A stretch of DNA of 64,000 bases from Acidobacteriota bacterium (GCA_015486055.1 WFSJ01000018.1:34179-98178), one strand, 5' to 3'; numbered from the stretch's first letter, positions 7,923 through 21,153 are shown. Numbers and translations: made by a program. Notes: a model not told the origin generated them from the letters alone.

Positions 7923-8696
7923 ATGAAGAAGTTTCTCCTTTGGTTATCAGCTTTTATCATAACAGTTTTTCTTGCCTATTACCAGAGAGTTACAGGGCCA
8001 ACATATCCTGTAAAGGGAAAAGCTATGGATGTAGCATACAATCTCCCAAGGACTCACAATACAGGTAAAGACGCCTGTTTCAGGATAAAATCGCCCTACG
8101 AAGGCAAGGTTCTATTCAGGCATCATGGAACAAGTGAACCCTGGAAAGAATTGGAGATGAAAAGGGGTGGAGACTTTATTATAGGGTGTCTTCCTTCCCA
8201 ACCCCCTGCAGGTAAAATAGATTACATGGTTTTCCTGAGGATAAAGGGCGAAGAGCATTCCCTCAGAAAAAATCCAGTTACAATAAGATTCAAAGGGGAA
8301 GTTCCATTGGGAATACTTATCACCCATATATTGATTATATTTTTCGCCATGCTTTTTGCATCAAGAGCTGGTCTTGAAGCAATTTTCGGGGGAAACCTCA
8401 AGCCATATGTTTGTTGGACATTCTATCTCTTTCTACTTGGAGCCTTAGTCCTTGGGCCAATAGTTCAGAAATACGCATTCGGGGTTTTCTGGAGTGGATT
8501 TCCCTTGGGCCATGACCTTACCGATACAAAGGTTCTGGTTCCCATTCTTTTCTGGCTTTTCCTGTACATCAGGGCTCTAAAGGGGAAATTAAAGAGGAAA
8601 GAAGTTTTTATTGCCTGGGCATTTATGTTAATTGTTTTTCTAATTCCTCATAGCCTTCTTGGTTCCGAGCTCAAGTATACGAATCCTCCCGAGTAA
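7923..8696 (+). CDS. Hypothetical membrane protein (N-terminal TM, soluble central part, C-terminal multi-TM region)
   Basis: 257 aa. No recognisable motif. Hydrophobic segments at the N-terminus and from about residue 130. Confidence 0.45.
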   Translation: MKKFLLWLSAFIITVFLAYYQRVTGPTYPVKGKAMDVAYNLPRTHNTGKDACFRIKSPYEGKVLFRHHGTSEPWKELEMKRGGDFIIGCLPSQPPAGKIDYMVFLRIKGEEHSLRKNPVTIRFKGEVPLGILITHILIIFFAMLFASRAGLEAIFGGNLKPYVCWTFYLFLLGALVLGPIVQKYAFGVFWSGFPLGHDLTDTKVLVPILFWLFLYIRALKGKLKRKEVFIAWAFMLIVFLIPHSLLGSELKYTNPPE

Positions 8697-9020
8697 AGAT
8701 ATAATAAACCTCCATCCTTTTCCCTCGCACAGAAGGTCAATATGCCCTGTAGGTGCAACATATCCTGAGGGATGAAAAACTATTTTTTTACATGAGACTC
8801 TGCATCCCTTGAGCTTTAATTCCGATTTTAAAATCAATTTATCTCCGCTGCACAGGACAGGTATTTTTTCTCTTCCTATGAGAGAGGTTACCTTTGCTGC
8901 CCTCAGCTTGGTGAGGACAGCATCCCTCTTCCATGTTCTTCCTGGCCTTACAAGGAAAAACACCGGGATGGAAACTATGGCGAGCACGACAAGAACTTCA
9001 ATTAAGGAAAATCCCCTCAT
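8640..9020 (-). CDS. Minor pseudopilin, prepilin-type N-terminal domain (type II secretion/type IV pilus family)
   Basis: N-terminus MRGFSLIEVLVVLAIV gives the G|F-x-x-x-E prepilin peptidase cleavage and methylation motif. Confidence 0.7.
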   Translation of the reverse strand: MRGFSLIEVLVVLAIVSIPVFFLVRPGRTWKRDAVLTKLRAAKVTSLIGREKIPVLCSGDKLILKSELKLKGCRVSCKKIVFHPSGYVAPTGHIDLLCEGKGWRFIISLLGRIRILELGTKKAMRN

Positions 9021-9922
9021 TTTTCCACCTCTGATAAGGAAAATTTAGAAAAGGCGAGGGTTTCCTCAGGGAACTCCATTCTTGGGTAATAATCGATTTC
9101 TTCGGGTTTCCTCCTTAATTTCCATTCTCCCTGCACTCTCATAGCCTGAATTCCTCCTTCAAGAATCCCTTCTCCCTGAAAAATCACACTCTCGGCCAAT
9201 AATTCTGCTTTCAGGGTTCCTCCTCCTTTTATTGTGATTCTTGAGTCTCCAAAATAATCCTTGAAGAAACCCTCTCCAGAAGAGATGAGCACTGTTTTTT
9301 GAGAGGCGAAATTCTCAGTTTTTATTGGCCCAGAGCAGAGGAGGACAAAATCCGCTTCTCCTGATATATTGCATTGGCCATCAACTACAATGAAGGACTT
9401 GGCTTCTATATCCTGTCCGGAAGAACTGATGAGAGCTTTTCCATCTTTCCCGGTAATATGAGAGTTCCCGGAGACATAAATCCCTTCTCTTTTGCCTTTT
9501 ATGGTGTAGAAAGTATCAGAGATTTGAATTAATTCAGGTTCGCCGAAAACGGAGTTTATGATTTCCTCAGAGGATGGAAAATCATTTAGCTTGAGGTCGG
9601 GGAAAATAGAGAGAGGGGCAATGCCTTTAACAAATATTGCTTCTCCCAAAAGTGCAAGGTTACCTTCGCTGAAAAATCCTTTTGTATCCTTTATGTAATA
9701 TTCTTCCCTTTCCTCTAAGTTTTCAAAAATAGGTGCTGTTTCTCCATCCACACATGCTTCCCATTTTTCTTCAAGGGATTCTATTACTCTGGAATACTCC
9801 CTTACGGATTTCCAGCCCGAGGTTCCCCTTTTTAAGAGGCTTTCAGAAATTGAGATTATGAATATTGAGGAACTTAGGAGCAGAAGCAAAAGTATGATTG
9901 AAGCATAGGCAAAACCTTTCAT
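9017..9922 (-). CDS. Pseudopilin-like protein lacking Glu+5 (GspK/PilX-like candidate)
   Basis: 301 aa. N-terminus MKGFAYASIILLLLL has the prepilin-like hydrophobic helix but no Glu5. Lies in an operon with three canonical pseudopilins. Confidence 0.5.
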   Translation of the reverse strand: MKGFAYASIILLLLLLSSSIFIISISESLLKRGTSGWKSVREYSRVIESLEEKWEACVDGETAPIFENLEEREEYYIKDTKGFFSEGNLALLGEAIFVKGIAPLSIFPDLKLNDFPSSEEIINSVFGEPELIQISDTFYTIKGKREGIYVSGNSHITGKDGKALISSSGQDIEAKSFIVVDGQCNISGEADFVLLCSGPIKTENFASQKTVLISSGEGFFKDYFGDSRITIKGGGTLKAELLAESVIFQGEGILEGGIQAMRVQGEWKLRRKPEEIDYYPRMEFPEETLAFSKFSLSEVEK

Positions 9923-10437
9923 TTCATCCTCCTTAAATAGACTTGCCCGTTTAAGAAGATCTTGAGGGTTTCCCCGTTCACCTCCATTTTGAAATTTTCT
10001 ATCCCTTCTTCAAGTGGCTGGGGATTGGAGTCCGATATCTTCATATAAAGAGTGTTCCCTTTGAGATAGATATATTTTCTCCTGAGGGCAAGGAAAAATT
10101 TCCCTTCGTTGCATCCTCCTGCTAGCTTTCCTTCAACAAGATTTATTTTTCCTTTCCTGCCGTAAATCACTCTGCACTTTCCATTCTTTCCTATTCCAAT
10201 TCCTATTGCCCTGAAATATTCCCATCCTTTGCCCTGTTTTTTTAGAAGATATGAATTCCCTAAGTCACTGCCTAAAAGCCTGGCCAGAAGCGGAACCCTT
10301 GTTTTCTCCTGGGCTTTTCTCAACCTAACCACTGTCCTTCCCCCTATTTGGAAGAGTGAGAGCACCCCTTCCATAAGAATCATTGAAAGGGTTAGGCTTG
10401 CCATCGTTTCAACGAGGGAAAAGCCTGAGTTTCTCAT
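9919..10437 (-). CDS. Minor pseudopilin with prepilin N-terminal domain
   Basis: N-terminus MRNSGFSLVETMASLTLSMIL. Confidence 0.7.
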   Translation of the reverse strand: MRNSGFSLVETMASLTLSMILMEGVLSLFQIGGRTVVRLRKAQEKTRVPLLARLLGSDLGNSYLLKKQGKGWEYFRAIGIGIGKNGKCRVIYGRKGKINLVEGKLAGGCNEGKFFLALRRKYIYLKGNTLYMKISDSNPQPLEEGIENFKMEVNGETLKIFLNGQVYLRRMK

Positions 10438-10705
10438 TTTTGCCCTCCATGAATTTTTCTTTGAGGAAAATTCTCCTTTTTCCTCTCTTCAATTCAATGA
10501 ATTCTCCTGTTTTTTTCCACACAACCTTCTTGTAATTGCCTTTTTTTGTTATGGCCGCTCTTCTTGATGCTTCCTCAAGCTCCAAGTCCTCATTTGCTAT
10601 CCTCATATTCCTTACAGAACGGAGCACAAGGGACAAGAAGAAAAGAGAGACTAACGCCCAAATTGCCATCGAAATCAAGACTTCTAAGTAACTGAATCCT
10701 TTCAT
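10409..10705 (-). CDS. Pseudopilin with prepilin N-terminal domain (start taken at internal MKGFSYLEV)
   Basis: MKGFSYLEVLISMAIWALV. A GGAGG SD precedes the ATG at about 10705. Confidence 0.65.
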   Translation of the reverse strand: MKGFSYLEVLISMAIWALVSLFFLSLVLRSVRNMRIANEDLELEEASRRAAITKKGNYKKVVWKKTGEFIELKRGKRRIFLKEKFMEGKNEKLRLFPR

Positions 10706-10842
10706 TTTTACCTCCTGGCATAAATAGTGCAAGCAAAGTTCCAGAAAAAGTCCCTATCAACTGAGAGCTAAGAATCTTCCCTGTAAACTTTTCTTTACCA
10801 CTGTGAATTGGAGATCTATTCTGAAGATGTTAAAATCTCAAA

Positions 10843-12030
10843 GTGAAGAACCCGGAAAGCATTGTTCGCCTTCAAAGGGCATTAAATTATCCTGAGAAGC
10901 CCTATTCCCCGGGTGTAAAATACCTTGAGTATCCATTTACAGATATCTCTCAGGGAGAAAATCAGGTTTATTCAGGGATGAGAAATTTACTTAGAATCTC
11001 TGGGCTTGATAAGGAAAATTACAACAAAAGGGGATGGAATCCCATGAGAGAATTTGTAGGTCCCGGAGCCAAGATATTCATAAATCCAGGAGGGGCATTT
11101 GTGGATTCTCTTTCCCATCCTTCCTTGCTTAAGGTGATTCTTGACTATATTTACATAGCAACAGAAGGAAAAGCTGAAATTTTCGTTGGATTCTCACCTT
11201 TTGACTGGGAGACCGAGGAAGAGTTTAAACTGCCAGAGCCCGGAGGTAAGGATTTCAGGGTGAGATGGATTGACTTGAGGGAGGCAAATGGAGGAGATTC
11301 CCTTGGATACACTCAGATTGACCTTGGGGAAGCAAGCGAATTTTACAAATATAGGGGAAACTGGAAATTAATGTCAATGGATGGAGAGGTTGATACTCAT
11401 AAACCTCATATTGCGAGGTATTTTATTTCCACAACTGTTCTTTCAAGTGACCTTATCATAAATATAGCGAGACCAGCTCTTAATCCCTGGTTAGGAGTCA
11501 GTGGAATTTTGGCCTCAGCCCTCGGTTTTATTGGAAACCCTGAGAGGATCCCTTTATTTTCCAAAGGAGCAGCGTTATCTGGAGGAGACCAATGTCCAGG
11601 AGAGGAGAAGAAGGAATGCAAAAAAACAATGGGCAAGTGGTGGGGTAATGACACTCTGTGGAGGGCAGTCCTTGATATCAATAAGATAATTCTTTATTTT
11701 AATTATGACGGTTCAATCAGGCACGAAAAAAGGAAAATCCTCAGTTTCTTAGACGGCATTTCTATCTCAGGGAAGAAAGCAGGATTTTTAGCTGCGGGCT
11801 TAAGCCAAGGAATCCTTGATTGTGTTTCCTTAAAGCTAATGGGGTATGACTGGAAGAAAATCCCTCTCATTCTGAATTTCTTCACTATTTCAAGTTTCCC
11901 CCTTTCCCAGTTTTCCCCCAAAGATATAAGCGTCATCGCAGAGGATATATTTCTCAGCGGCAAATTTGATGAAATTGAGCCAGTAATTTCTCTTGGTGAA
12001 ATGAGAAGCTGGAAAGGAAAGCTGAGGTAA
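10843..12030 (+). CDS. Hypothetical protein, possibly DUF362-like
   Basis: 395 aa. No clear catalytic motif. The DUF362 resemblance is weak. Confidence 0.4.
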   Translation: MKNPESIVRLQRALNYPEKPYSPGVKYLEYPFTDISQGENQVYSGMRNLLRISGLDKENYNKRGWNPMREFVGPGAKIFINPGGAFVDSLSHPSLLKVILDYIYIATEGKAEIFVGFSPFDWETEEEFKLPEPGGKDFRVRWIDLREANGGDSLGYTQIDLGEASEFYKYRGNWKLMSMDGEVDTHKPHIARYFISTTVLSSDLIINIARPALNPWLGVSGILASALGFIGNPERIPLFSKGAALSGGDQCPGEEKKECKKTMGKWWGNDTLWRAVLDINKIILYFNYDGSIRHEKRKILSFLDGISISGKKAGFLAAGLSQGILDCVSLKLMGYDWKKIPLILNFFTISSFPLSQFSPKDISVIAEDIFLSGKFDEIEPVISLGEMRSWKGKLR

Positions 12031-12036
12031 TGGAGC

Positions 12037-13536
12037 TTACTTTACGTACCCAAGGGATTTTAAGAATCTTAGCTGATGTTTAATCTGAGCGGGGGTCATA
12101 TTTCCCTTCCTTTCTTTTACCATTGGAATTACTTTTTTCTCATATTTAAGGAGCATTCCTATCATTCCTTGCGTTTCTGATGTGAATTCTATTGGATGGA
12201 TCCCCAATCTGTCCTTTTTTAGGTTAAAAAAGAGAAATTCCTTCTTTTCAGGAGTATGTATAAGAAGAAATGAACCCTTTAGGAGGGAAAATCTGTCAAG
12301 TATAGCCTCAGGTTTAAAGGTTTCTTGAAAGAGGTAAGGATGCCCCTCCTTTTTGAAAAGGTCTATGCCCTTTATGTCCTGTGGAAGAGGAATTTTGGCA
12401 ATTTTCAGCACTGTTGGGAATATATCCATTATTGAGCGAAGCTCTTTTCTCTCCCCCTTTTTCCCATCAGGAGTTAGCATAAGGAGAGGAATCCTTGTAT
12501 AGACTGCATTAAGGAAGTGGACATGACCAAGGTGTTTTTTCCACTCTCCCATTCCTTCTCCGTGGTCTGCGAGAATGAACAAGTAAGTGTTTTTCAACAG
12601 TCCCATCTTTTCAAGCTTTTTGTATAGAAATTTGAACTGAGAATCCCAGTAATTTACTTCTTCTTTGTAAAATTCATGGGCTAATGGGGCCGTAGGGGAA
12701 GCTACAGGCTTTATTTTGCCTTCTCCTTCTTCGTTAAGGGTCAAATTGAAGCTTACCTTATTCTTTCTCTTAAGAAAGATAAGCTTCTCAGCTTCTCCGA
12801 TCTTTACCTTGTAATTTTCTCTCTTCCTGAGCCTTTTGTTCAATTTAACCGTCACCCTCACTGTTTCCCCTGGTTTTCCCTTTACAAAGAAAAGCTCCTT
12901 CTTAAGGAAGTTTACCTCCCCTGCTTTTTTGCCATTTACAAGTACTTCTCCGTCTGGCTCTAAATAGGGAGGAGCATAGGGCTCATGGGGGTCAGAATAA
13001 TGGACCCATAGGAAAAAGGGTTTTTTTATTTTTTTTAGCATAGGGAAAATGGCTTGATTTACCTCCGCTGCATTTTTGTAACACCTTGTTTTTGGGAAAT
13101 TATCGGAGTAATATTCAAACCCCCTTGAGATTCCGGTTGAAGAGTGAACGGTGCCTAAGGAAACAGCGGCCATTGTTGTATATCTCTTTTCTCTTAAAAT
13201 CTCTGCAAGAAGCTTAGTGGACCCTGTGTATATTAATCCATTGTTTGTTATTCCTAGTTCCCAAGGATATTTTGACGTAAAAAGGGAAAGATGCGCAGGG
13301 AGAGTTATGGGGATAGTTGTGTAAGTGTTGTTGAAATAGACGCCTCTTTTTTTCAGAGAGCTGAAAAATGGAGCTTCTGCCCCTCCAAGATCCTCCCTCA
13401 TTGTATCAACAACAATAATTATGAAATTGGGACGCAGGTTTCTTGGGGATGAGGAACAACCTTCCATTATCAGAAGGATTATCAACATTGTTATTGTGAA
13501 TAATCCTTTCAACCATCCGTAAGTTAATCTGTTCAT
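12037..13536 (-). CDS. Membrane-anchored type I phosphodiesterase/nucleotide pyrophosphatase (NPP) family enzyme, alkaline-phosphatase superfamily. Paralog A
   Basis: N-terminal TM helix. VVDTMREDLGG metal-site motif. TTIPITLPAHLSLFTSKYPWELGI matches the NPP catalytic-Thr block ([21 protein letters not shown]-like), not the C/S-x-P-x-R of sulfatases. Confidence 0.7.
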   Translation of the reverse strand: MNRLTYGWLKGLFTITMLIILLIMEGCSSSPRNLRPNFIIIVVDTMREDLGGAEAPFFSSLKKRGVYFNNTYTTIPITLPAHLSLFTSKYPWELGITNNGLIYTGSTKLLAEILREKRYTTMAAVSLGTVHSSTGISRGFEYYSDNFPKTRCYKNAAEVNQAIFPMLKKIKKPFFLWVHYSDPHEPYAPPYLEPDGEVLVNGKKAGEVNFLKKELFFVKGKPGETVRVTVKLNKRLRKRENYKVKIGEAEKLIFLKRKNKVSFNLTLNEEGEGKIKPVASPTAPLAHEFYKEEVNYWDSQFKFLYKKLEKMGLLKNTYLFILADHGEGMGEWKKHLGHVHFLNAVYTRIPLLMLTPDGKKGERKELRSIMDIFPTVLKIAKIPLPQDIKGIDLFKKEGHPYLFQETFKPEAILDRFSLLKGSFLLIHTPEKKEFLFFNLKKDRLGIHPIEFTSETQGMIGMLLKYEKKVIPMVKERKGNMTPAQIKHQLRFLKSLGYVK

Positions 13537-13594
13537 TTATCCCTCCGTTTGTCTTTATTTTAATGCATTTTCTCTAATTATATAAGGAAATTTC

Positions 13595-15076
13595 TCATCT
13601 GACATACCCGAGAGAGCGAAGCATCTCGAGAGATTTTTTATCTATGATTCTCTTTTTAAGCCTTCTCCTTGCAAACCTTTCATATTCTAAAACATCTTTC
13701 ATCATTTCATTGGCTTGCGAATTAAACTTTATGGGCTTTAAGGAAAGCCTATCCTTTTCTATATTAAAGAAGAAGGCAAAATTATTAATAGGAGTGTAAA
13801 TGAGTTGAAAAGGCGGTTTGATAATGGAAAATCTATCGAAAAAGGCCTCAGGTCTGAAAGTTTGAAGATAAAGACTTTTATGCTTCTTCTTTCCGAGGAG
13901 GCTGAATCCTCTCATTTTATGAGAGGATTTTATGCGAGCAAGTTCTAAAACTGTCGGGAAAACATCCATAATTGAGCAGAGCCTGCTATCTATTCCCTTG
14001 ATTTTTCCATTTGGTGACAAGAACAGCATCGGAATTCTCATATATACTCCGTTAAGGAAAAGAATATGCCCTATGTGTCCTTTCCATTCACCAAGGCCTT
14101 CACCATGGTCAGCAAGAATAAAAATATAGGTATTTCTAAGCAAACCTCTCTTTTTTAGTTCTTTATAAAGTTTCCTGAATTCCCTGTCCCAGTAAACTAC
14201 TTCCTCTTTATAAAACTTCCTTGCTTTTGCAACGCTCAATTTTATTTCCGGAATAAGGGAAATCTCCTTATTTTTTTCTGCCTCTATTTCTACTTGGAAA
14301 TAATTCTTTTCTATAGGGAATTTTTTCCCGTTTATCTTTATAGAGTAAAGAGCATCCTTAATCTTATGAATTATGTTTATTCTGACCTTTATTTTACTAT
14401 GAGATTTGTTTTTTATAAGGACCTTTTCCTCCTTTAAGAAAGTTATTTCCCCTTTTTTCTTTCCCTGAACGAATATCTCACTATCCGGTCTATAATAAGG
14501 AGGAACATAGGGCTCGTGAGGATCAGAATAATGGACCCAGAGGAAGAAGGGCCTTTTTAGGTTTGAGAGCATAGGGAGAAGAGCAGAATTTATTTCTTTT
14601 GCAGTCCTGTACCATCTTGTTTTGGGAAAGGAGTTGTTGAAGTATTGAAATCCTCTTGAAATTCCCGTGGAAGCCTGAAGTGTTCCCAAGGATACGATTG
14701 CCATAGTAGTGTATCCTTTTTCCCTTAATATTTCCTGAAGGAGCTTTGTCCCCTCTTTGTATTGCATTCCGTTGTTTACCACATGAAGCTCTGGGGGAAG
14801 TTTTGATGTAAGAAGGGAAAGATGAGCAGGCAGGGTTATGGGAATTGTGGTAAAGCAATTACTGAAATATTTTCCCCGCACTTTTAGGCTTTCGAAAAAA
14901 GGGGGGTTAGCTCCTCCAAGATCCTCCCTTAATGTGTCCACAACAACAATTACGAAGTTGGGTTTTTCCCTTTTTATGAGCAAAAAATATCCTATCAGGG
15001 TAAAAAGAATAGCCGCTATAATTATCAGGGATAGATACTTCAATTTTTCATGCTTGGATTTAATTCCTTCGCTCAA
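13595..15076 (-). CDS. Membrane-anchored NPP-family phosphodiesterase. Paralog B, a tandem duplicate of A
   Basis: About 50% identical to paralog A over its full length (NFVIVVVDTLREDLGG, TTIPITLPAHLSLLTSKLPPELHV). Confidence 0.7.
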   Translation of the reverse strand: MSEGIKSKHEKLKYLSLIIIAAILFTLIGYFLLIKREKPNFVIVVVDTLREDLGGANPPFFESLKVRGKYFSNCFTTIPITLPAHLSLLTSKLPPELHVVNNGMQYKEGTKLLQEILREKGYTTMAIVSLGTLQASTGISRGFQYFNNSFPKTRWYRTAKEINSALLPMLSNLKRPFFLWVHYSDPHEPYVPPYYRPDSEIFVQGKKKGEITFLKEEKVLIKNKSHSKIKVRINIIHKIKDALYSIKINGKKFPIEKNYFQVEIEAEKNKEISLIPEIKLSVAKARKFYKEEVVYWDREFRKLYKELKKRGLLRNTYIFILADHGEGLGEWKGHIGHILFLNGVYMRIPMLFLSPNGKIKGIDSRLCSIMDVFPTVLELARIKSSHKMRGFSLLGKKKHKSLYLQTFRPEAFFDRFSIIKPPFQLIYTPINNFAFFFNIEKDRLSLKPIKFNSQANEMMKDVLEYERFARRRLKKRIIDKKSLEMLRSLGYVR

Positions 15077-15101
15077 GTTTTCTCCTTCAGTTTAGACTGT
15101 G

Positions 15102-17315
15102 TTAATTAATATATCCAAGGGACTCAAGCACCTTTCTAAATTTCTTTATCTTTTTCTTAGAGAAGGGCTTTAGATCATGAGTTTTGTTGTATTCCTTGTT
15201 CCTTTTGAGCATTCCAAAAGCTTTCTGGCGGAGGAGCCCTGTTAGAAGAGGCTTGCTTGGCGCCAGGTTATGTTTTTCCTTGTCGTCCTCCTCTAAATTA
15301 TAGATTTCATCCCTTCCTTTATAATATATGTATTTGGTTTTCCCATCGGTGAGTCCAATGTTGAAAGCGTCAGAGTTCGCCCGGGAATATAACCATCTTT
15401 TTAGAAGTTTATCTGGCTTTCCAAGAAGTAAGGGAGCAAGGCTCGTTCCCTGAGTTTTCAATTTCGGCTTTATGCCCAATAAGTCATATATCGTGGGGGC
15501 AAAATCTACATTACTATAGGCTGTTTTCTCTACAGATTTTGCCTCTTTCTGACCTGGCATCTTTAGGAAAAATGGGATGTGAATCATTTCCTGATAGTTT
15601 GTAGTGTTATGGTCAAATTTGTAATGCTCATAGAAAGCTTCGCCGTGGTCGGTGCTTACAACTATTAAGGATTTTTCGTAAAGTCCCATGCTTTTTATAG
15701 TATCCAAAACCTTTCCAACAAGATAGTCAGCGTAATAAATGTTATTGAGGTAACAGTTATAAAGCCAATCTATGAACTTAGGAGGAGGATTAAAATCCTT
15801 CTCATATCTTCTTACCAATCTTTTTATAAACATTTGGTTATATCCGAGTGTCTTTTTAATTATATAAAATTGAGGAGGAGGATTGTACGGATAATGTGGA
15901 GGAAGAATATGGATGTACACAAAGTTTGGTTTATATGGATTTATTTTCCTTAAGGTTCTCACCATTAACTTTTCTTTCATGGTAGAATCGTTCAAGAATC
16001 CTATTTTCCCAATATATACAGTTTTATCAAAACGCCCTGAAATTCCGGTTCTTATTGGAATTGCACTCCCAGTTATCAAGAGGGTTGAATATCCAATATT
16101 TCTCAGCTCCTCTGGGAGGGTTAGAAGTTTTTTGCTTGCGATGTTTTTCACATCCCTTATGCCGTGAGCTTCAGGATATAAACCAGTCATGTAGGTAGCC
16201 ACACTTGCAGCAGTATATGGAGCGGAAGTATAAAATTTCTTGAAAGAAAAAGCTTGTTTCGAAAACTTCGTTATATTTGGGACCAGCTCCTTTTTCTCTA
16301 TTATGGTATTATATCTTGCGGCATCTATGAGTATTAAGAAAATATTTGGTTTTCCTTTGATGCGGCCGTTAAACTTGGGAGAAGCTTTTTTGTTTTCCAT
16401 GCCAGTTAAAGCAAGTTTCTTCCAAAGGAGTCTGTTCATCGGGTTCTTTGCCTTATAGATCAATCTTATCCCTATGAGCTTTCCGGCAAAAGACTTGAGA
16501 GAAATATTCCCCTTTCTTTTCTCTGAGTTTTTCAGCTGCAGAATTTTATCGGATATTATTTTTCCTTCTTTGCTCAGGATTGAGATTTTAAGGGTGGCTT
16601 TTGAGGTTTCCTTTTCTCCGATTGAGAGATTCTCTACCTCGTATCTCAGAAGGATTTTTCCCAAAGGAACAAAGAAAAACTCCATTGCTGAATTCGCAGG
16701 CTGAAAAATTCTCTCTGACTTCTTACTGAAAGGTTTTGGAAAAGGGAGTAAAAACTCTACATCTTTTAGGAAAATCAACCTGTGAGGTTTCTTTGTGTGT
16801 TCTTCTTGGAAAATTCTTTTTTCCTCTTCACCGAGCTCAAATTTCAGGAAATTTTCCCCTTCCTTAAGGAATTCTTTCTTTACAGGTATCTTTATCTCTT
16901 CTTCTGAGCTCTTTGCAAATATCTCCCTGCATTTATTCTTGTTAACGAAAATCAATATGTGGACCTTTTTTTTGTCAAAAAAATTTCCTTTTCTAACCTT
17001 GAAGTATAAGTTTCTATCTCTATTTGAAAAGTTGAAGAACCTTATCTTAGCAACAGGAGATGTCATATAAATTTCCTTTCCCTCGGGGTACCAACCGGAT
17101 ATAAAGAAATAGTAAGGATTTTTATTCGGGCTTTTCATGCTTACTGTCTCAGGGAAAAAGTTCTGCCAGCTCAAATTTTTGCTCAAATCATAAGCTCGTT
17201 TATATAATCCGCAGCTGTAGAAGAGGGAAGTTACTAAAGCGAAAAGCACCATAGTAAATATAAGAATCCTTCTATTCATAATTTGAGAATTCTTGCTTAC
17301 CTCATTTTTCTCCAT
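15102..17315 (-). CDS. NPP-family phosphodiesterase with an N-terminal extension of about 330 aa and unknown function. Paralog C
   Basis: C-terminal domain has FLILIDAARYNT and ...TYMTGLYPEAHGI, which matches the NPP [10 protein letters not shown] block almost exactly. N-terminal TM plus an uncharacterised region. Confidence 0.65.
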   Translation of the reverse strand: MEKNEVSKNSQIMNRRILIFTMVLFALVTSLFYSCGLYKRAYDLSKNLSWQNFFPETVSMKSPNKNPYYFFISGWYPEGKEIYMTSPVAKIRFFNFSNRDRNLYFKVRKGNFFDKKKVHILIFVNKNKCREIFAKSSEEEIKIPVKKEFLKEGENFLKFELGEEEKRIFQEEHTKKPHRLIFLKDVEFLLPFPKPFSKKSERIFQPANSAMEFFFVPLGKILLRYEVENLSIGEKETSKATLKISILSKEGKIISDKILQLKNSEKRKGNISLKSFAGKLIGIRLIYKAKNPMNRLLWKKLALTGMENKKASPKFNGRIKGKPNIFLILIDAARYNTIIEKKELVPNITKFSKQAFSFKKFYTSAPYTAASVATYMTGLYPEAHGIRDVKNIASKKLLTLPEELRNIGYSTLLITGSAIPIRTGISGRFDKTVYIGKIGFLNDSTMKEKLMVRTLRKINPYKPNFVYIHILPPHYPYNPPPQFYIIKKTLGYNQMFIKRLVRRYEKDFNPPPKFIDWLYNCYLNNIYYADYLVGKVLDTIKSMGLYEKSLIVVSTDHGEAFYEHYKFDHNTTNYQEMIHIPFFLKMPGQKEAKSVEKTAYSNVDFAPTIYDLLGIKPKLKTQGTSLAPLLLGKPDKLLKRWLYSRANSDAFNIGLTDGKTKYIYYKGRDEIYNLEEDDKEKHNLAPSKPLLTGLLRQKAFGMLKRNKEYNKTHDLKPFSKKKIKKFRKVLESLGYIN

Positions 17316-17389
17316 TATTTTCTCCGTATATGAGATGACTACTATAATGAGATTTCACAAGTTAATTTTATCACTTGTCCCCAATTGCT

Positions 17390-18619
17390 TCATATATAAA
17401 AAATCACCCTTGAAGATGCGAAGAACAGAGTATATATGGCTAAGAGGAAAAAGAAGCAAAGGAAAGTGTATTTTTCGCTCGCCTTATAACGGTGAGAAGC
17501 AAAAAGCAGAACGAAAAGGAGAAATATCTCATAAGAAATTCTCTCAGCGTTTCCTATGTGTCTCCATACTTTATGGTACTTTGTTGAAAGGATGAGAAGG
17601 GAATACAAGGGAAGGGAAATGCTAAGAGGTCCCCATTTTTTCCATAAAAGATAGATTGAAAACAGGAAAAGTAAAATAATGATAACCGAAAAGAAAACAG
17701 CGGCCTCCTTAATGCCTTTTCTATAAAATCCGTGAGATGTTGACCAGAAGAGTTTCGCTACGCCGCTAAAAGGAGTAGTTATAATTTCGGAATTTGAGAG
17801 AAAAGGTCTCCATCCGTAATCCGGGAAAAACCTCCATGTCAGAAAGATTTTCCACAGAAAATATGGAAAAATGGAGGAGAAGAGCAAGACTGGCCTTTTT
17901 GAAGACTTGGTCTTTAAGGATTCAAACGTAGCTAAGACCAGAACGAAGATTATGATAGTTTCTCTTGTAAGAATGGCAAGTGCGAAAAGCAGAGAAGAAA
18001 ATACGAATCTTTCCTTTATGTAGAAATAAAAGCCTCCCAGGAGAAAAGCGCCAGCCACAGCTTCAGGTAGGGCATAGAAGAGGGAGAAATAAAATGATGG
18101 GATTGCGAGGTAAATTAATGCCCAAAGAGGATCCTTACCATAAAATATGAGTATTTTCACGAGGAAAAAGGCTGAAAGAAAAATTGCAAGAAGGATTGTG
18201 TAAACCATTACTTCGGGATACAGCTCTGGTTTATCAAGGGAGAAAATCTTTACAAGGAGAGGAAAACCAATTCTCCCGTATCTATATGGGGGAATGTCTA
18301 AAAACTTCCTGTAAATTTTGGGTTTATCTTTATATTTTTCCGCAAAGGGATCAAAGGTTATAAAATAGAAAAATTGTCCATCATATCCGTGCTTTTTAAT
18401 AACTAAACCTTTTGTTAAATCTCCTCTTTCTTTCAATATTGGATTTTTGTCAATTCTCTTACTTGAGATTTTTAAAAACCCACTGTAATTTCCCCTATAT
18501 CTCTTTTTAAGGTAACCTCTCATCGCAGAGAAAAAAAACAGGAAAACCAAAATTGTAGCAATTGCTGACTTAACAAGGACATTCCTTTTGTTAAGAAGCA
18601 TCTTCAGCCTTTTTTTCAT
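17390..18619 (-). CDS. Polytopic integral membrane protein (at least 9 TM, aromatic-rich), possibly a GT-C-like glycosyl/mannosyl transferase
   Basis: 409 aa with hydrophobic helices throughout. Lies downstream of and co-directional with the NPP triplet. Confidence 0.4.
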   Translation of the reverse strand: MKKRLKMLLNKRNVLVKSAIATILVFLFFFSAMRGYLKKRYRGNYSGFLKISSKRIDKNPILKERGDLTKGLVIKKHGYDGQFFYFITFDPFAEKYKDKPKIYRKFLDIPPYRYGRIGFPLLVKIFSLDKPELYPEVMVYTILLAIFLSAFFLVKILIFYGKDPLWALIYLAIPSFYFSLFYALPEAVAGAFLLGGFYFYIKERFVFSSLLFALAILTRETIIIFVLVLATFESLKTKSSKRPVLLFSSIFPYFLWKIFLTWRFFPDYGWRPFLSNSEIITTPFSGVAKLFWSTSHGFYRKGIKEAAVFFSVIIILLFLFSIYLLWKKWGPLSISLPLYSLLILSTKYHKVWRHIGNAERISYEIFLLFVLLFASHRYKASEKYTFLCFFFLLAIYTLFFASSRVIFYI

Positions 18620-18665
18620 CTTCCAATTTTATCATCCTTGACAATCAGCTCGAGCTTGAATAATA

Positions 18666-19532
18666 TTGCTTTCTATGGAAATATTGGTAGCAGAAGAGGC
18701 AGGATTTTGTTTCGGGGTGAGAAGAGCAGTGAAGATTGCCTATGAAGCCCTTGAAAAGTGGGAGAAGGTTTATTCTTACGGAGAGCTAATCCACAATAAT
18801 CAATTTGTTGAGAAGCTTGAGAGGGATGGAATAAAAACTGCAAGGACAATGGATGAAATTCCTAATGGAGCTGCAGTTATAATAAGGTCCCATGGGATTT
18901 CCCCACAGGAGGAAAAGGAGCTTAAAAGGAGGTTTAAGGTAATTGATGCTACCTGTCCCTATGTGAAAAAATCCCAGAAGTTTGCATCAAAAACTCTCCG
19001 TGCAGGGATGGAACTTGTAATATTCGGGGACAGAAACCATCCTGAAATAATGGGGATTCTCGGTTATACCCAGGGCTCGGGAATCGTCATTTCAAGCCCG
19101 AAAGAAGTCATAGGGCTTCCTTTCAATCCCAAGAGAGCGGTAATTTCCCAGACAACAAACGACATTGAGGATTACAAAATTTTCGTGGGGAATCTTATGA
19201 ACACCTCTGAGAAACTTACAATTTACCAGACGATATGCTCTTCAACTATAGAAAAGCACAGGTCAGCTAAGGAGATAGCCTCAAAAGTCGATTTAATGCT
19301 CGTTATAGGCGGAAAACACAGCGCAAATACAAAAAAACTATTTACAGCCTGCAAGAGACTTCAGCCGAGAACCTATCATATAGAAACAGCAGAGGAATTG
19401 GACTTGATAGAGTGGGGAAATTATGAGAGAATAGGTATATCCGCAGGAGCTTCAACTCCTGATTTTGTAATAAATAAAGTGGTTGAAAAAATAAAGGAGG
19501 AAAGAAATGGCCGAGGGAAAAAGGAAGGGTGA
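18666..19532 (+). CDS. ispH: 4-hydroxy-3-methylbut-2-enyl diphosphate reductase
   Basis: MEILVAEEAGFCFGVRRAV and conserved Cys-containing segments of LytB/IspH. Confidence 0.9.
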   Translation: MLSMEILVAEEAGFCFGVRRAVKIAYEALEKWEKVYSYGELIHNNQFVEKLERDGIKTARTMDEIPNGAAVIIRSHGISPQEEKELKRRFKVIDATCPYVKKSQKFASKTLRAGMELVIFGDRNHPEIMGILGYTQGSGIVISSPKEVIGLPFNPKRAVISQTTNDIEDYKIFVGNLMNTSEKLTIYQTICSSTIEKHRSAKEIASKVDLMLVIGGKHSANTKKLFTACKRLQPRTYHIETAEELDLIEWGNYERIGISAGASTPDFVINKVVEKIKEERNGRGKKEG

Positions 19533-21153
19533 AGAAGACTACGAAAAGCTGCTTGAAGACTACAAATTCCAAGTGCCAACGAGCGGGGAGGTCATAAAGG
19601 GAAAGATACTGGAGATAAGAGGTAAGGAAGTAATAGTAGACATAGGTTCAAAGCTTGAAGGCGTCATTCCGCTTGAAGAATTTATGGACTGGAAGGGCGA
19701 AGTTCAGGTTAAGGAAGGGGACGAAGTTGAGGCTATTGTTGAAACAACCTCGGTCAGAGAAGGATATATTCCTCTTTCCAAGAGGAAGCTTGAAGTTAGA
19801 AAGGCCTTGGATAAAATAAATAAAGCTTACAAGGAAGGGAAAGCTATTGAGGGGATGATAGTAAGAAGGGAGAAAAAAGGATTTCTTGTGGATATAGAAG
19901 GAGTGAAGACATTTCTCCCCGGTTCCCAACTCGAACTGAGGCCTGTTAAGGATGCCTATAAATATATAGGAAAGAGTTTCCTTATGAAGATTCTTGATAT
20001 AAGGAAGACAAGAAACTCTATGTCAATAATAGTCTCGAGGAGAGTCCTTGTAGAGGATGAATTCAAAAGGAGGAAGGAAGAAGTTCTCTCAAGCATTAAA
20101 GAGGGAGAGTGGCGCAAGGGTACTGTTAAGAACTTAACAGATTTTGGGGTGTTCGTAAATCTTGGGGGGATAGATGGACTTTTACCTCTCAGTGAAATGA
20201 GCTGGGGGAGGGTGAATGACCCAAGGAAATTCTTCAAAGAAGGGGACGAAGTAGAAGTTCTTATTCTTAAATTTGATCCTGAGAAGGAAAAAATAATACT
20301 CGGATACAAGCAGAAGACCCCAGATCCATGGGAAAATATAGAGGAAAAGTACAAGAAGGGAGATAGAATTAGCGGCAGGGTGGTGAGCTTGACTGATTTT
20401 GGTGCTTTTATAGAGCTCGAAAATGGGGTCGAAGGCCTTATCAGAAACAGGGAACTGACCTGGAGCGAGCATATAAAGGACCCACATCAGATTATGAGCG
20501 AAGGAGAAATTGTGGAGGTAGAAGTCCTTTATGTTGACCCAAAAGAGAGGAAAATAGCTCTTAGTTATAAGAGGACCTTTCCCACCCCTATTGAGGTTTT
20601 TTCATCCGCTCATAGTGTAGGCGAGGTTTTAAAGGGCAAAGTGAAGGACATAAAGGATTTTGGGGCATTTATTGAGCTGGAACCTGGGGTTGAGGCCCTG
20701 ATGAGGAAATCCGATTTTTCCTGGGAAAGGGTTGATGACTTGAACGAGTATTTGAAGCAAGACGATGAGATGGAGGTTAAGATACTTGAGCTAAATCCCA
20801 AGGAAAGGAAAATAAGGGTTGGCAAAAAGCAACTGGTTGAAGATCCCTTTGAGGACTTTGCGGAGGAACATTCTGAAGGAGAGACAATTGAGGGGAAGGT
20901 GATAAATATTATAGAAAAAGGAATAATCTTGGAATTCGTCCCAGGCGTTACTTCCCTATTACCTAAAGGGAAGAAAGAATTTTCAATCGGGGATGTTCTG
21001 AAGGTCAATATAGTTTTGATAGATAAGAACAGGAGAAGATTGAAAGTTTCATGGATAGCAAGGAAAAAGAGAGAACACAGGGAACGGAAGGAAAATAAAG
21101 ACACCAAAAATCCTACCCTTGGAGACCTTTTGCCTGATCATCTGAAGAAATGA
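19507..21153 (+). CDS. rpsA: 30S ribosomal protein S1 (multiple S1 domains)
   Basis: 548 aa with five or six S1 repeats (GxV..I..fGaFV.L..g.eGL.h.SE). Overlaps the ispH 3' end by 26 nt. Confidence 0.85.
   Translation: MAEGKRKGEEDYEKLLEDYKFQVPTSGEVIKGKILEIRGKEVIVDIGSKLEGVIPLEEFMDWKGEVQVKEGDEVEAIVETTSVREGYIPLSKRKLEVRKALDKINKAYKEGKAIEGMIVRREKKGFLVDIEGVKTFLPGSQLELRPVKDAYKYIGKSFLMKILDIRKTRNSMSIIVSRRVLVEDEFKRRKEEVLSSIKEGEWRKGTVKNLTDFGVFVNLGGIDGLLPLSEMSWGRVNDPRKFFKEGDEVEVLILKFDPEKEKIILGYKQKTPDPWENIEEKYKKGDRISGRVVSLTDFGAFIELENGVEGLIRNRELTWSEHIKDPHQIMSEGEIVEVEVLYVDPKERKIALSYKRTFPTPIEVFSSAHSVGEVLKGKVKDIKDFGAFIELEPGVEALMRKSDFSWERVDDLNEYLKQDDEMEVKILELNPKERKIRVGKKQLVEDPFEDFAEEHSEGETIEGKVINIIEKGIILEFVPGVTSLLPKGKKEFSIGDVLKVNIVLIDKNRRRLKVSWIARKKREHRERKENKDTKNPTLGDLLPDHLKK

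Follow-up and report, generated by a model that had tools for sequence, protein, structure and literature searches.

The locus examined here raises the question of which reaction is catalyzed by proteins that have the fold of sulfatases and a Thr in place of the sulfatase nucleophile. It lies at positions 12037-17315 of a 64,000-nt stretch of DNA from an Acidobacteriota bacterium (GCA_015486055.1 WFSJ01000018.1:34179-98178), hereafter called the window, and contains three genes, A, B and C. An initial annotation of this DNA described the products as three tandem, membrane-anchored members of the type I phosphodiesterase/nucleotide pyrophosphatase (NPP) family and not as sulfatases. We found that A, B and C have the S1 sulfatase fold, that a Thr-centered motif replaces the formylglycine motif of sulfatases, and that this replacement is conserved. 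We consider it probable that the three proteins are inner-membrane-tethered, periplasm-facing Thr-type phospho(di)esterases built on an S1 sulfatase scaffold.

Results

Gene organization and relationship among A, B and C

Genes A (12037-13536, 499 residues), B (13595-15076, 493 residues, TTG start) and C (15102-17315, 737 residues) are intact open reading frames (ORFs) arranged head to tail on the minus strand, and their limits match exactly those proposed initially. A GGAG-type ribosome-binding site precedes each gene, with AAGGAG located 6 nt upstream of the TTG start of B. The product of A has one N-terminal anchor, followed by a Thr-type catalytic domain of the sulfatase fold that harbors an internal beta insert, and B has the same motifs. 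In C the anchor is followed by two beta-sandwich domains and then by a catalytic domain that is likewise Thr-type and of the sulfatase fold; its nucleophile motif resembles that of EptA.

A BLASTP alignment of A with B spans both proteins in full at 51% identity (E 3e-173), in agreement with the approximately 50% identical duplicates recognized earlier. However, in a neighbor-joining tree A clustered with its sister-genome orthologues and B branched outside this cluster, indicating that B is an old paralog rather than a fresh duplicate of A. Alignment of C with A was confined to the catalytic domain, with about 25% identity (E 5e-6). We conclude that C is only distantly related to A and B and should not be described as their close paralog.

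Family assignment

The Sulfatase family PF00884 was the best Pfam hidden Markov model for all three proteins, with scores of 110, 106 and 137 bits for A, B and C, respectively, and the matches ran from end to end (positions 1-300/301). The phosphodiesterase family PF01663 also scored above its gathering cutoff of 23 bits in all three proteins (49.7, 38.2 and 43.2 bits), but its best stretch covered only profile positions 2-72 of 342. Thus, PF01663 was neither the best-scoring model nor matched over most of its length in A, B or C. When a profile of 57 family sequences was compared with the PDB, S1 sulfatases were recovered with an E value of 1e-42 and LtaS with 1e-17, and there was no NPP among the 60 matches listed. 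The N-terminal 86 residues of A, used alone, gave weak matches that included ENPP1 (E 0.026) as compared to choline sulfatase at E 4e-5. Choline sulfatases were on top of a Foldseek search with C, and choline sulfatase was repeatedly the top match in sequence, profile and fold comparisons. The NPP core fold was not the nearest structural neighbor of A, B or C. As all three proteins combine a PF00884 match with the two-subdomain fold of S1 sulfatases, we conclude that they are alkaline-phosphatase superfamily members that have this fold, and not true NPP-family enzymes, contrary to the initial annotation.

The NPP proposal holds that A, B and C are ecto-enzymes hydrolyzing extracellular nucleotides or DNA by means of a nucleophilic Thr and a site for two zinc ions. 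Several features of A and B do point in this direction. Their D-T-x-R-x-D sequence recalls what we take to be the NPP motif D-G-x-R-x-D, their T-L-P-A-H recalls T-F-P-N-H, presumably its NPP counterpart, and an invariant Asn located 21 residues past the Thr (N99 in A) is presumably spaced like the active-site Asn of NPP. We treat these N-terminal resemblances as a lead; they would account for both the partial PF01663 match and the initial impression of an NPP. A T-x-P-x-H motif built around the Thr and followed downstream by an Asn (T78-L-P-A-H82 and N99 in A; T81...H85 and N102 in B) is presumably shared with Xanthomonas NPP (7MW8), ENPP1/4/6/7 and PafA/PhoK, which also have in common with our proteins the D-x-x-R-x-D first-strand motif and the logic of a hydrolase with a soluble ecto-domain. 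In contrast, C does not contain T-x-P-x-H, and the NPP zinc motif D-x-x-x-H is not evident in any of the three proteins. Moreover, in their middle and C-terminal regions the three proteins are sulfatase-like, with a P-H-x-P-Y motif and a sulfatase-type C-terminal subdomain. Membership in the NPP family is therefore improbable.

Active-site residues

The nucleophile motif I-T-L-P-A-H is located at residues 77-82 of A (13291-13308, minus strand) and at residues 80-85 of B (14822-14839, minus strand), with T78 and T81 as the presumed nucleophiles. Alignment with phmmer placed T78 of A opposite the Cys of C-A-P-S-R in 6HHM and the Ser of S-T-P-A-R in 7OZ8, while H82 was found at the position of the motif Arg. 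T-L-P-A-H had been reported for all three proteins; this is correct for A and B, but C contains Y-T-A-A-S-V at residues 367-372 (16200-16217, minus strand), from which both the Pro and the Arg of the sulfatase motif are absent. In the alignment of C with S-T-P-A-R of 7OZ8, the presumed nucleophile T368 takes the nucleophile position, A370 that of the Pro and V372 that of the Arg. The T-S/G-x-x-P-x-x-x-G block noted previously is present as T-S-K-x-P-x-E-L in A and B and as T-G-L-Y-P-E-A-H-G-I in C. Conservation of these motifs is high. The sequence IPITLP[AS]H was kept in almost all of the 120 relatives listed, with the Thr and His present in 120 of 120, and the motif of C was conserved as T-[AS/V]-A-S-[VI] in six orthologues.

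The remaining elements of the site are distributed along the catalytic domain, all on the minus strand. The sequence VVDTMRED at residues 42-49 of A (13390-13413) contains D44, which aligns with the first metal-binding Asp of sulfatases and corresponds to D47 of B (14921-14944) and D331 of C (16308-16331). D44, T45, R47 and D49 were invariant in the 57 family members. A second element, WVHYSDPHEPY (H-x4-H-x-P-x-Y) at residues 177-187 of A (12976-13008), contributes the invariant columns H179 and H184, and is found at 14507-14539 in B and at 15885-15917 in C (H469 and H474). The third comprises residues 322-341 of A, LADHGEGMGEWKKHLGHVHF (12514-12573), with D324, H325, E327 and H338; it aligns with the DHG motif of sulfatases and the DHGE...H of EptA, and its counterparts lie at 14057-14116 in B and at 15594-15656 in C (D556, H557, E559 and H569). 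In the A family D44, T78, H82, N99, H179, H184, D324, H325, E327 and H338 were invariant. In the C family D331, H474, D556, H557, E559 and H569 were invariant, and T368 and H469 were nearly so. D44, H184, D324, H325 and H338 are candidate metal ligands on the basis of these alignments.

The two Lys residues that bind sulfate in S1 sulfatases were not retained. According to phmmer alignments with 6HHM and 7OZ8, the G-K-x-H strand of sulfatases corresponds to L-G-T-V-H in A, in which T129 is not conserved. The Lys that follows D-H-G in sulfatases, as part of K-H, is replaced by G337 in the G337-H338 pair of A and aligns with N570, preceded by H569, in C.

Databases annotate proteins of this type as genuine sulfatases, which would desulfate polysaccharides or choline-sulfate-like compounds. 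Consistent with this annotation, the best sequence, profile and fold matches were all S1 sulfatases, and the relatives are named 'sulfatase' or 'arylsulfatase A-like enzyme' in their sources. However, C/S-x-P-x-R is absent at the aligned position in A and B (T-L-P-A-H) and in C (T-A-A-S-V), as the initial annotation had pointed out for the group, so formylglycine cannot be generated and none of the three can be a formylglycine sulfatase. As the authors of SulfAtlas have argued, Thr takes the nucleophile position in approximately half of the PF00884 seed sequences, and such proteins are not to be regarded as functional sulfatases, because Thr cannot yield formylglycine; its oxidation would give a ketone (PMC5066984). 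In addition, the motif Arg and both Lys positions are replaced. Because the replacements are invariant across the family, they do not represent decay. It is thus very improbable that A, B and C are sulfatases. No dedicated scan for an FGE or anSME maturase was carried out; the sole radical SAM similarity in the window was that of a MiaB-type gene.

The initial annotation had named two outcomes that would speak against it, a best match to PF00884 with a conserved Cys or Ser nucleophile, and the absence of metal-ligand Asp and His residues. The best match was indeed PF00884, while the nucleophile is Thr, and candidate Asp and His ligands were present and invariant.

The S1 sulfatases and phosphonate monoester hydrolases (PMH) used for comparison (BetC, 6G5Z/7PTH; BT1918, 7OZ8; FA22070, 6HHM; PMH, 2VQR/4UPK) share with A, B and C the Pfam family, the two-subdomain fold, the first metal Asp, P-H-x-P-[YF], D-H-G and the C-terminal subdomain. 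They differ in that a Cys- or Ser-derived formylglycine is combined with Arg, whereas our proteins have Thr combined with His (A and B) or Val (C), and in that both sulfate-binding Lys residues are present, whereas ours have replacements and an extra invariant His (H338/H569). Relative to the S1 sulfatases, A and B contain an additional beta insert, C two additional N-terminal beta-sandwich domains, and all three a membrane anchor.

Comparison with Thr-type phosphotransferases

Profile-profile comparisons were carried out with hhalign using E. coli K-12 EptA as the reference. The alignment of the C family with EptA covered the entire catalytic domain (probability 98%, E 1.5e-13), and every catalytic residue was matched. 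D331 was paired with the zinc-ligand Glu, T368 with the catalytic Thr of G-T-A-T-A-V-S-V-P, H469 and H474 with the two His residues of 'lHtigsHgP', D556-H557-G-E559 with D-H-G-E, and H569 with the distal His. The A family aligned only from D-H-G-E onward, i.e. over the C-terminal part (probability 75%). Nevertheless, A and B contain the same set of residues as C and EptA, with the same spacings. In MCR-1 the ligands of Zn1 are Glu246, Thr285, Asp465 and His466, His395 and His478 contact Zn2 and phosphate, and Glu468 orients His478 (PMC5216409). The elements that characterize Thr-type phosphotransferases within PF00884, a Thr with acidic, Asp and His ligands plus two accessory His residues, were all found in our proteins. 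As far as the aligned residues indicate, the Asp / Thr / His-x4-His / Asp-His-Gly-Glu / His set is the constellation of Thr-nucleophile Zn/Mn phosphoryl-transfer enzymes such as EptA/MCR-1, LtaS and NPP.

The likeness to EptA, MCR-1 and EptC extends to the acidic ligand, D-H-G-E, the H-x4-H pair and the distal His, which they share with the C family, and to the Thr nucleophile, with T-A-A-S-V in C comparing to T-A-V-S-V in EptA. The first metal ligand is Glu in those enzymes and Asp in ours, and the 5-helix membrane domain is found only in theirs. LtaS, LtaP, YejM(PbgA) and VP1736 are more different. Unlike A, B and C, they have a 5-transmembrane (TM) anchor and nucleophile motifs of the T-S-D-x-E type, and they do not have the S1-type C-terminal subdomain or the LGY tail described below; phmmer detected weak similarity to these proteins (E 1e-3 to 1e-7). 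The curated NCBIfam models for EptA, MCR, LtaS and YejM gave best scores of 20-35 bits against cutoffs of 500-1250.

These comparisons bring in the main rival explanation, that the three proteins act as phosphotransferases in the manner of EptA, LtaS, OpgB and GacH, in which case the Thr would move a phospholipid head group (phosphoethanolamine or glycerol-phosphate) to an envelope glycopolymer. The full-length catalytic alignment and the nucleophile motif of C argue for such a role, whereas the restriction of the A family-EptA alignment to the C-terminal part argues against it. The membrane domain and the genomic context, which also bear on this explanation, are considered in the following sections.

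Membrane topology and domain architecture

A Kyte-Doolittle scan revealed a single N-terminal hydrophobic segment, with basic residues ahead of it, in each protein. These anchor or signal segments correspond to residues 4-30 of A (13447-13527), 10-37 of B (14966-15049) and 15-38 of C (17202-17273), all on the minus strand, and the segment of A was modeled as a helix at residues 4-27. Many relatives have a lipobox in place of the hydrophobic anchor. The single segment with its preceding basic residues, together with these lipoboxes, predicts an N-in topology in which A, B and C are tethered to the membrane with the catalytic domain outside the cytoplasm, as had been proposed. The genome can be considered diderm because LptF/G is encoded in the window.

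A multi-span membrane domain of about 5 TM segments is absent from A, B and C. Those relatives whose N-termini were inspected have a single anchor or a lipobox, and the listed relatives are approximately 410-570 residues long. The soluble domains of EptA and LtaS hydrolyze substrates, and transfer fails without the TM domains (PMC7576196). As our proteins do not have the 5-helix membrane domain, on which transfer by EptA, LtaS and YejM depends, and contain beta-sandwich accessory domains instead, net hydrolysis by A, B and C would be more likely than transfer.

AlphaFold (AF2) models were obtained for A (pLDDT 93.4) and C (pLDDT 82). The C-terminal extensions of about 200 residues that had been attributed to A and B were not found. 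In A the Pfam domain ends near residue 381, and the remaining ~120 residues form an ordinary S1 sulfatase C-terminal subdomain plus two helices, as judged from an SGSH_C-like match, from PDB sulfatase profile alignments that run almost to the end of the protein, and from the AlphaFold model. The additional material in A is instead an internal, beta-rich insert at residues 192-283 (12688-12963, minus strand). It contains about eight strands within the catalytic core, as assigned by DSSP from the AF2 model, fills a gap between the aligned sulfatase segments, and is weakly conserved and fast-varying among relatives. C has an N-terminal extension of about 290 residues, in which the AF2 secondary structure shows two beta-sandwich domains. 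These occupy residues 69-304 (16404-17111, minus strand), past the anchor and ahead of the catalytic domain, and this region is just 28-34% identical among C orthologues. Homology searches with the insert of A and the N-terminal region of C detected no relatives outside the immediate clade. Binding of a polymer or a surface would fit the beta-sandwich accessory domains.

All three proteins end in a short tail that is a hallmark of the family, L-[KR]-[AS]-L-G-Y-[ILV], seen as SLGYVK in A (12040-12057), SLGYVR in B (13598-13615) and SLGYIN in C (15105-15122), all on the minus strand. L492 and Y497 were invariant and L495 and G496 nearly invariant in the 57-member A family. The tail is strictly C-terminal and occurs in nearly all family members, short and long, including most of those in loci L008-L087; it may serve in docking, oligomerization or sorting.

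Distribution and genomic context

By scanning one genome per species we identified 515 relatives. The best 80 of these were almost all from Aminicenantes and other Acidobacteriota (Thermoanaerobaculia and Vicinamibacteria), with a few from Planctomycetota and Myxococcota. None exceeded 37% identity, and the best relatives in the genome collection were 34-37% identical. At least two family genes were found side by side in 22 of 82 loci (e.g. L012, L014, L025, L030, L035, L050, L052 and L053). The typical tandem pair consists of a long form of 650-930 residues with an N-terminal extension and a short form of about 530 residues, like C and A. The recurrence of such pairs across Acidobacteriota suggests a two-enzyme module.

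We also considered whether function could be deduced from neighboring genes by clustering the flanking ORFs of 80 genome loci. This approach was abandoned, as it returned housekeeping genes (Nuo subunits, Lpd, S1, HIT, IspH, tRNA synthetases and TonB-type outer-membrane proteins), and the sole recurrent theme was the presence of extra family paralogs.

In the window the gene upstream of C (17390-18619, minus strand) encodes a 409-residue multi-span membrane protein and lies between ispH and C, 74 nt upstream of C. The product has at least five strongly hydrophobic stretches and no Pfam match, and scored 155.8 bits against a cutoff of 150 with NCBIfam model NF046093, the AZOBR_p60025 family ('cell surface glycopolymer formation'), for which we found no literature. 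This gene may be cotranscribed with the A-B-C cluster, and its product might act together with A, B and C as transferases. The family assignment of the upstream gene, as well as the presence of Wzm/Wzt and cytidylyltransferase genes near one related locus (L089), are in keeping with transfer to a glycopolymer. On the other hand, the upstream gene is missing from all 87 related loci and was found at this position in the window genome only, and we rejected a partnership with it for this reason. Taken together with the missing multi-span domain, which is required in EptA and LtaS (PMC7576196) and is absent from A, B, C and the inspected relatives, we consider a transferase function unlikely, albeit the strongest of the alternatives.

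The A-B-C cluster is flanked on one side by ispH-rpsA and on the other by a convergent DUF362-like ORF and four pseudopilin-like genes. ispH (LytB) and a gene for a 548-residue ribosomal protein S1 occupy 18666-21153 on the plus strand, with ispH overlapping the start of the S1 gene by 26 nt. The ispH-rpsA-HIT-dnaK block is conserved in all relatives and served as the synteny anchor of the locus. The DUF362-like ORF (10843-12030, plus strand, 395 residues) converges with A and ends 6 nt from the A stop codon. Its match to DUF362 is faint (E 0.045), and ORFs at the same place in sister genomes are 48-50% identical to it; the equivalent in L089 has a clear DUF362 match. Beyond it are four consecutive small ORFs (8640-10732, minus strand) of 126, 301, 172 and 107 residues with hydrophobic, prepilin-type N-termini. 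G-F-S-L/Y-x-E is present in three of them. All four look like minor pseudopilins, and such ORFs are kept beside the DUF362-like gene in relatives. A promoter and terminator scan of 11800-18800 yielded promoters no better than those in shuffled sequence, so the operon structure of the cluster is deduced from spacing and ribosome-binding sites alone.

The gene order within the clade of the window is ispH / C-type / A-type / TIGR04013 B12/radical-SAM / DUF362-like / pseudopilins. In all seven sister loci examined the TIGR04013 B12-binding/radical-SAM gene follows the A-type gene with a 4-nt stop/start overlap (L003, 11479-12699; L005, 11668-12825; L006, 11674-12837; L007, 11716-12873; L089, 7440-8651; L090, 7464-8645; L091, 7479-8699), and the three that were scanned scored 375-403 bits. 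The window genome is the exception: its counterpart would adjoin position 12037, and the window contains no TIGR04013 gene and has B and the upstream membrane protein instead. In L089 the A-type/radical-SAM/DUF362 block is followed at 10051-12550 by Wzm (ABC2_membrane), Wzt (ABC_tran + Wzt_C) and a small cytidylyltransferase, which are glycopolymer export and activation genes. A functional link between the radical-SAM gene and the A-type gene was considered and judged to be clade-specific synteny, since distant TIGR04013 homologues (35-48% identity) had no sulfatase-like neighbor in any of the 74 loci that contained them among the 80 metagenome loci kept. It is accordingly extremely improbable that A/B-type proteins represent a separate enzyme class whose invariant IPITLPxH loop is modified by, or works obligatorily with, the TIGR04013 enzyme, the gene of which is translationally coupled to the A-type gene in the sister genomes examined. 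This would be a form of maturation independent of FGE and anSME, in which case the enzyme would be encoded elsewhere in the window genome or would have been lost with B compensating.

Discussion

A, B and C each miss the features that define the known groups, i.e. the formylglycine motif of S1 sulfatases, the multi-span domain of EptA, LtaS and YejM, and the fold or full-profile match of NPP. In descent and fold they group with S1 sulfatases and phosphonate monoester hydrolases, and their active-site chemistry would be that of EptA/MCR-1, LtaS and NPP. We know of no characterized enzyme in which a single anchor and a Thr/His site occur together with the two-subdomain scaffold of S1. Our literature search for characterized Thr-type S1-like enzymes returned none beyond LtaS, EptA and YejM, together with the SulfAtlas caveat on Thr-containing sequences.

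We favor a model in which A, B and C are tethered phospho(di)esterases. A divalent metal ion, probably Zn or Mn, would activate the Thr (T78 in A, T81 in B and T368 in C), which would then attack a phosphate ester, most plausibly a phosphodiester. The resulting covalent phospho-Thr intermediate would be resolved by water. The substrate would likely be a lipid head group of the envelope, a surface glycopolymer with phosphodiester substituents, or organic phosphate outside the cell. Phosphoester and most plausibly phosphodiester chemistry is thus the most reasonable reading of the site, and in this respect the proposed set of ecto-phosphodiesterases stands, while its assignment to the NPP family does not.

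Several observations weigh against this model. Over their whole sequences, the proteins are most similar to true sulfatases and phosphonate monoester hydrolases, and it is formally conceivable that the Thr nucleophile serves a novel chemistry on sulfate or phosphonate. None of the NCBIfam subfamily models scored above its cutoff, and no member of the subfamily has been characterized. The neighboring genes give no consistent functional signal. The EptA-like motif of C and the glycopolymer-related membrane protein upstream would be compatible with a transferase role. Finally, YejM/PbgA, which has a similar Thr site, is mainly a regulator.

The last observation raises the possibility that the three proteins serve chiefly as envelope sensors or regulators without catalysis, in the manner of YejM/PbgA/LapC, and bind lipid or glycan through a vestigial site. 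We regard this as highly doubtful. All catalytic residues, D-H-G-E and the two additional His residues among them, are invariant or nearly so across the A and C families, whereas YejM has lost several catalytic residues (PMC7576196). Furthermore, our proteins do not have the 5-TM domain, and an array of several paralogs in tandem is typical for catabolic or remodeling enzymes.

These findings have consequences for annotation. Hundreds of such genes in Aminicenantes and other Acidobacteriota are labeled 'sulfatase' or 'arylsulfatase A-like', and these labels feed claims on the degradation of sulfated polysaccharides. Because the Thr/His site is invariant, genes of this subfamily should not be counted as sulfatases. 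The subfamily is neither rare nor mechanistically exotic, and the practical consequence is mainly the correction of annotation. As an S1 sulfatase scaffold that carries the catalytic set of Thr-type phosphoryl transfer, it provides a test case for the switching of nucleophile and substrate charge within the alkaline-phosphatase superfamily. For the bacteria themselves, the recurrent tandem pairs of outward-facing enzymes in diderm organisms point to an activity in envelope remodeling or phosphorus scavenging.

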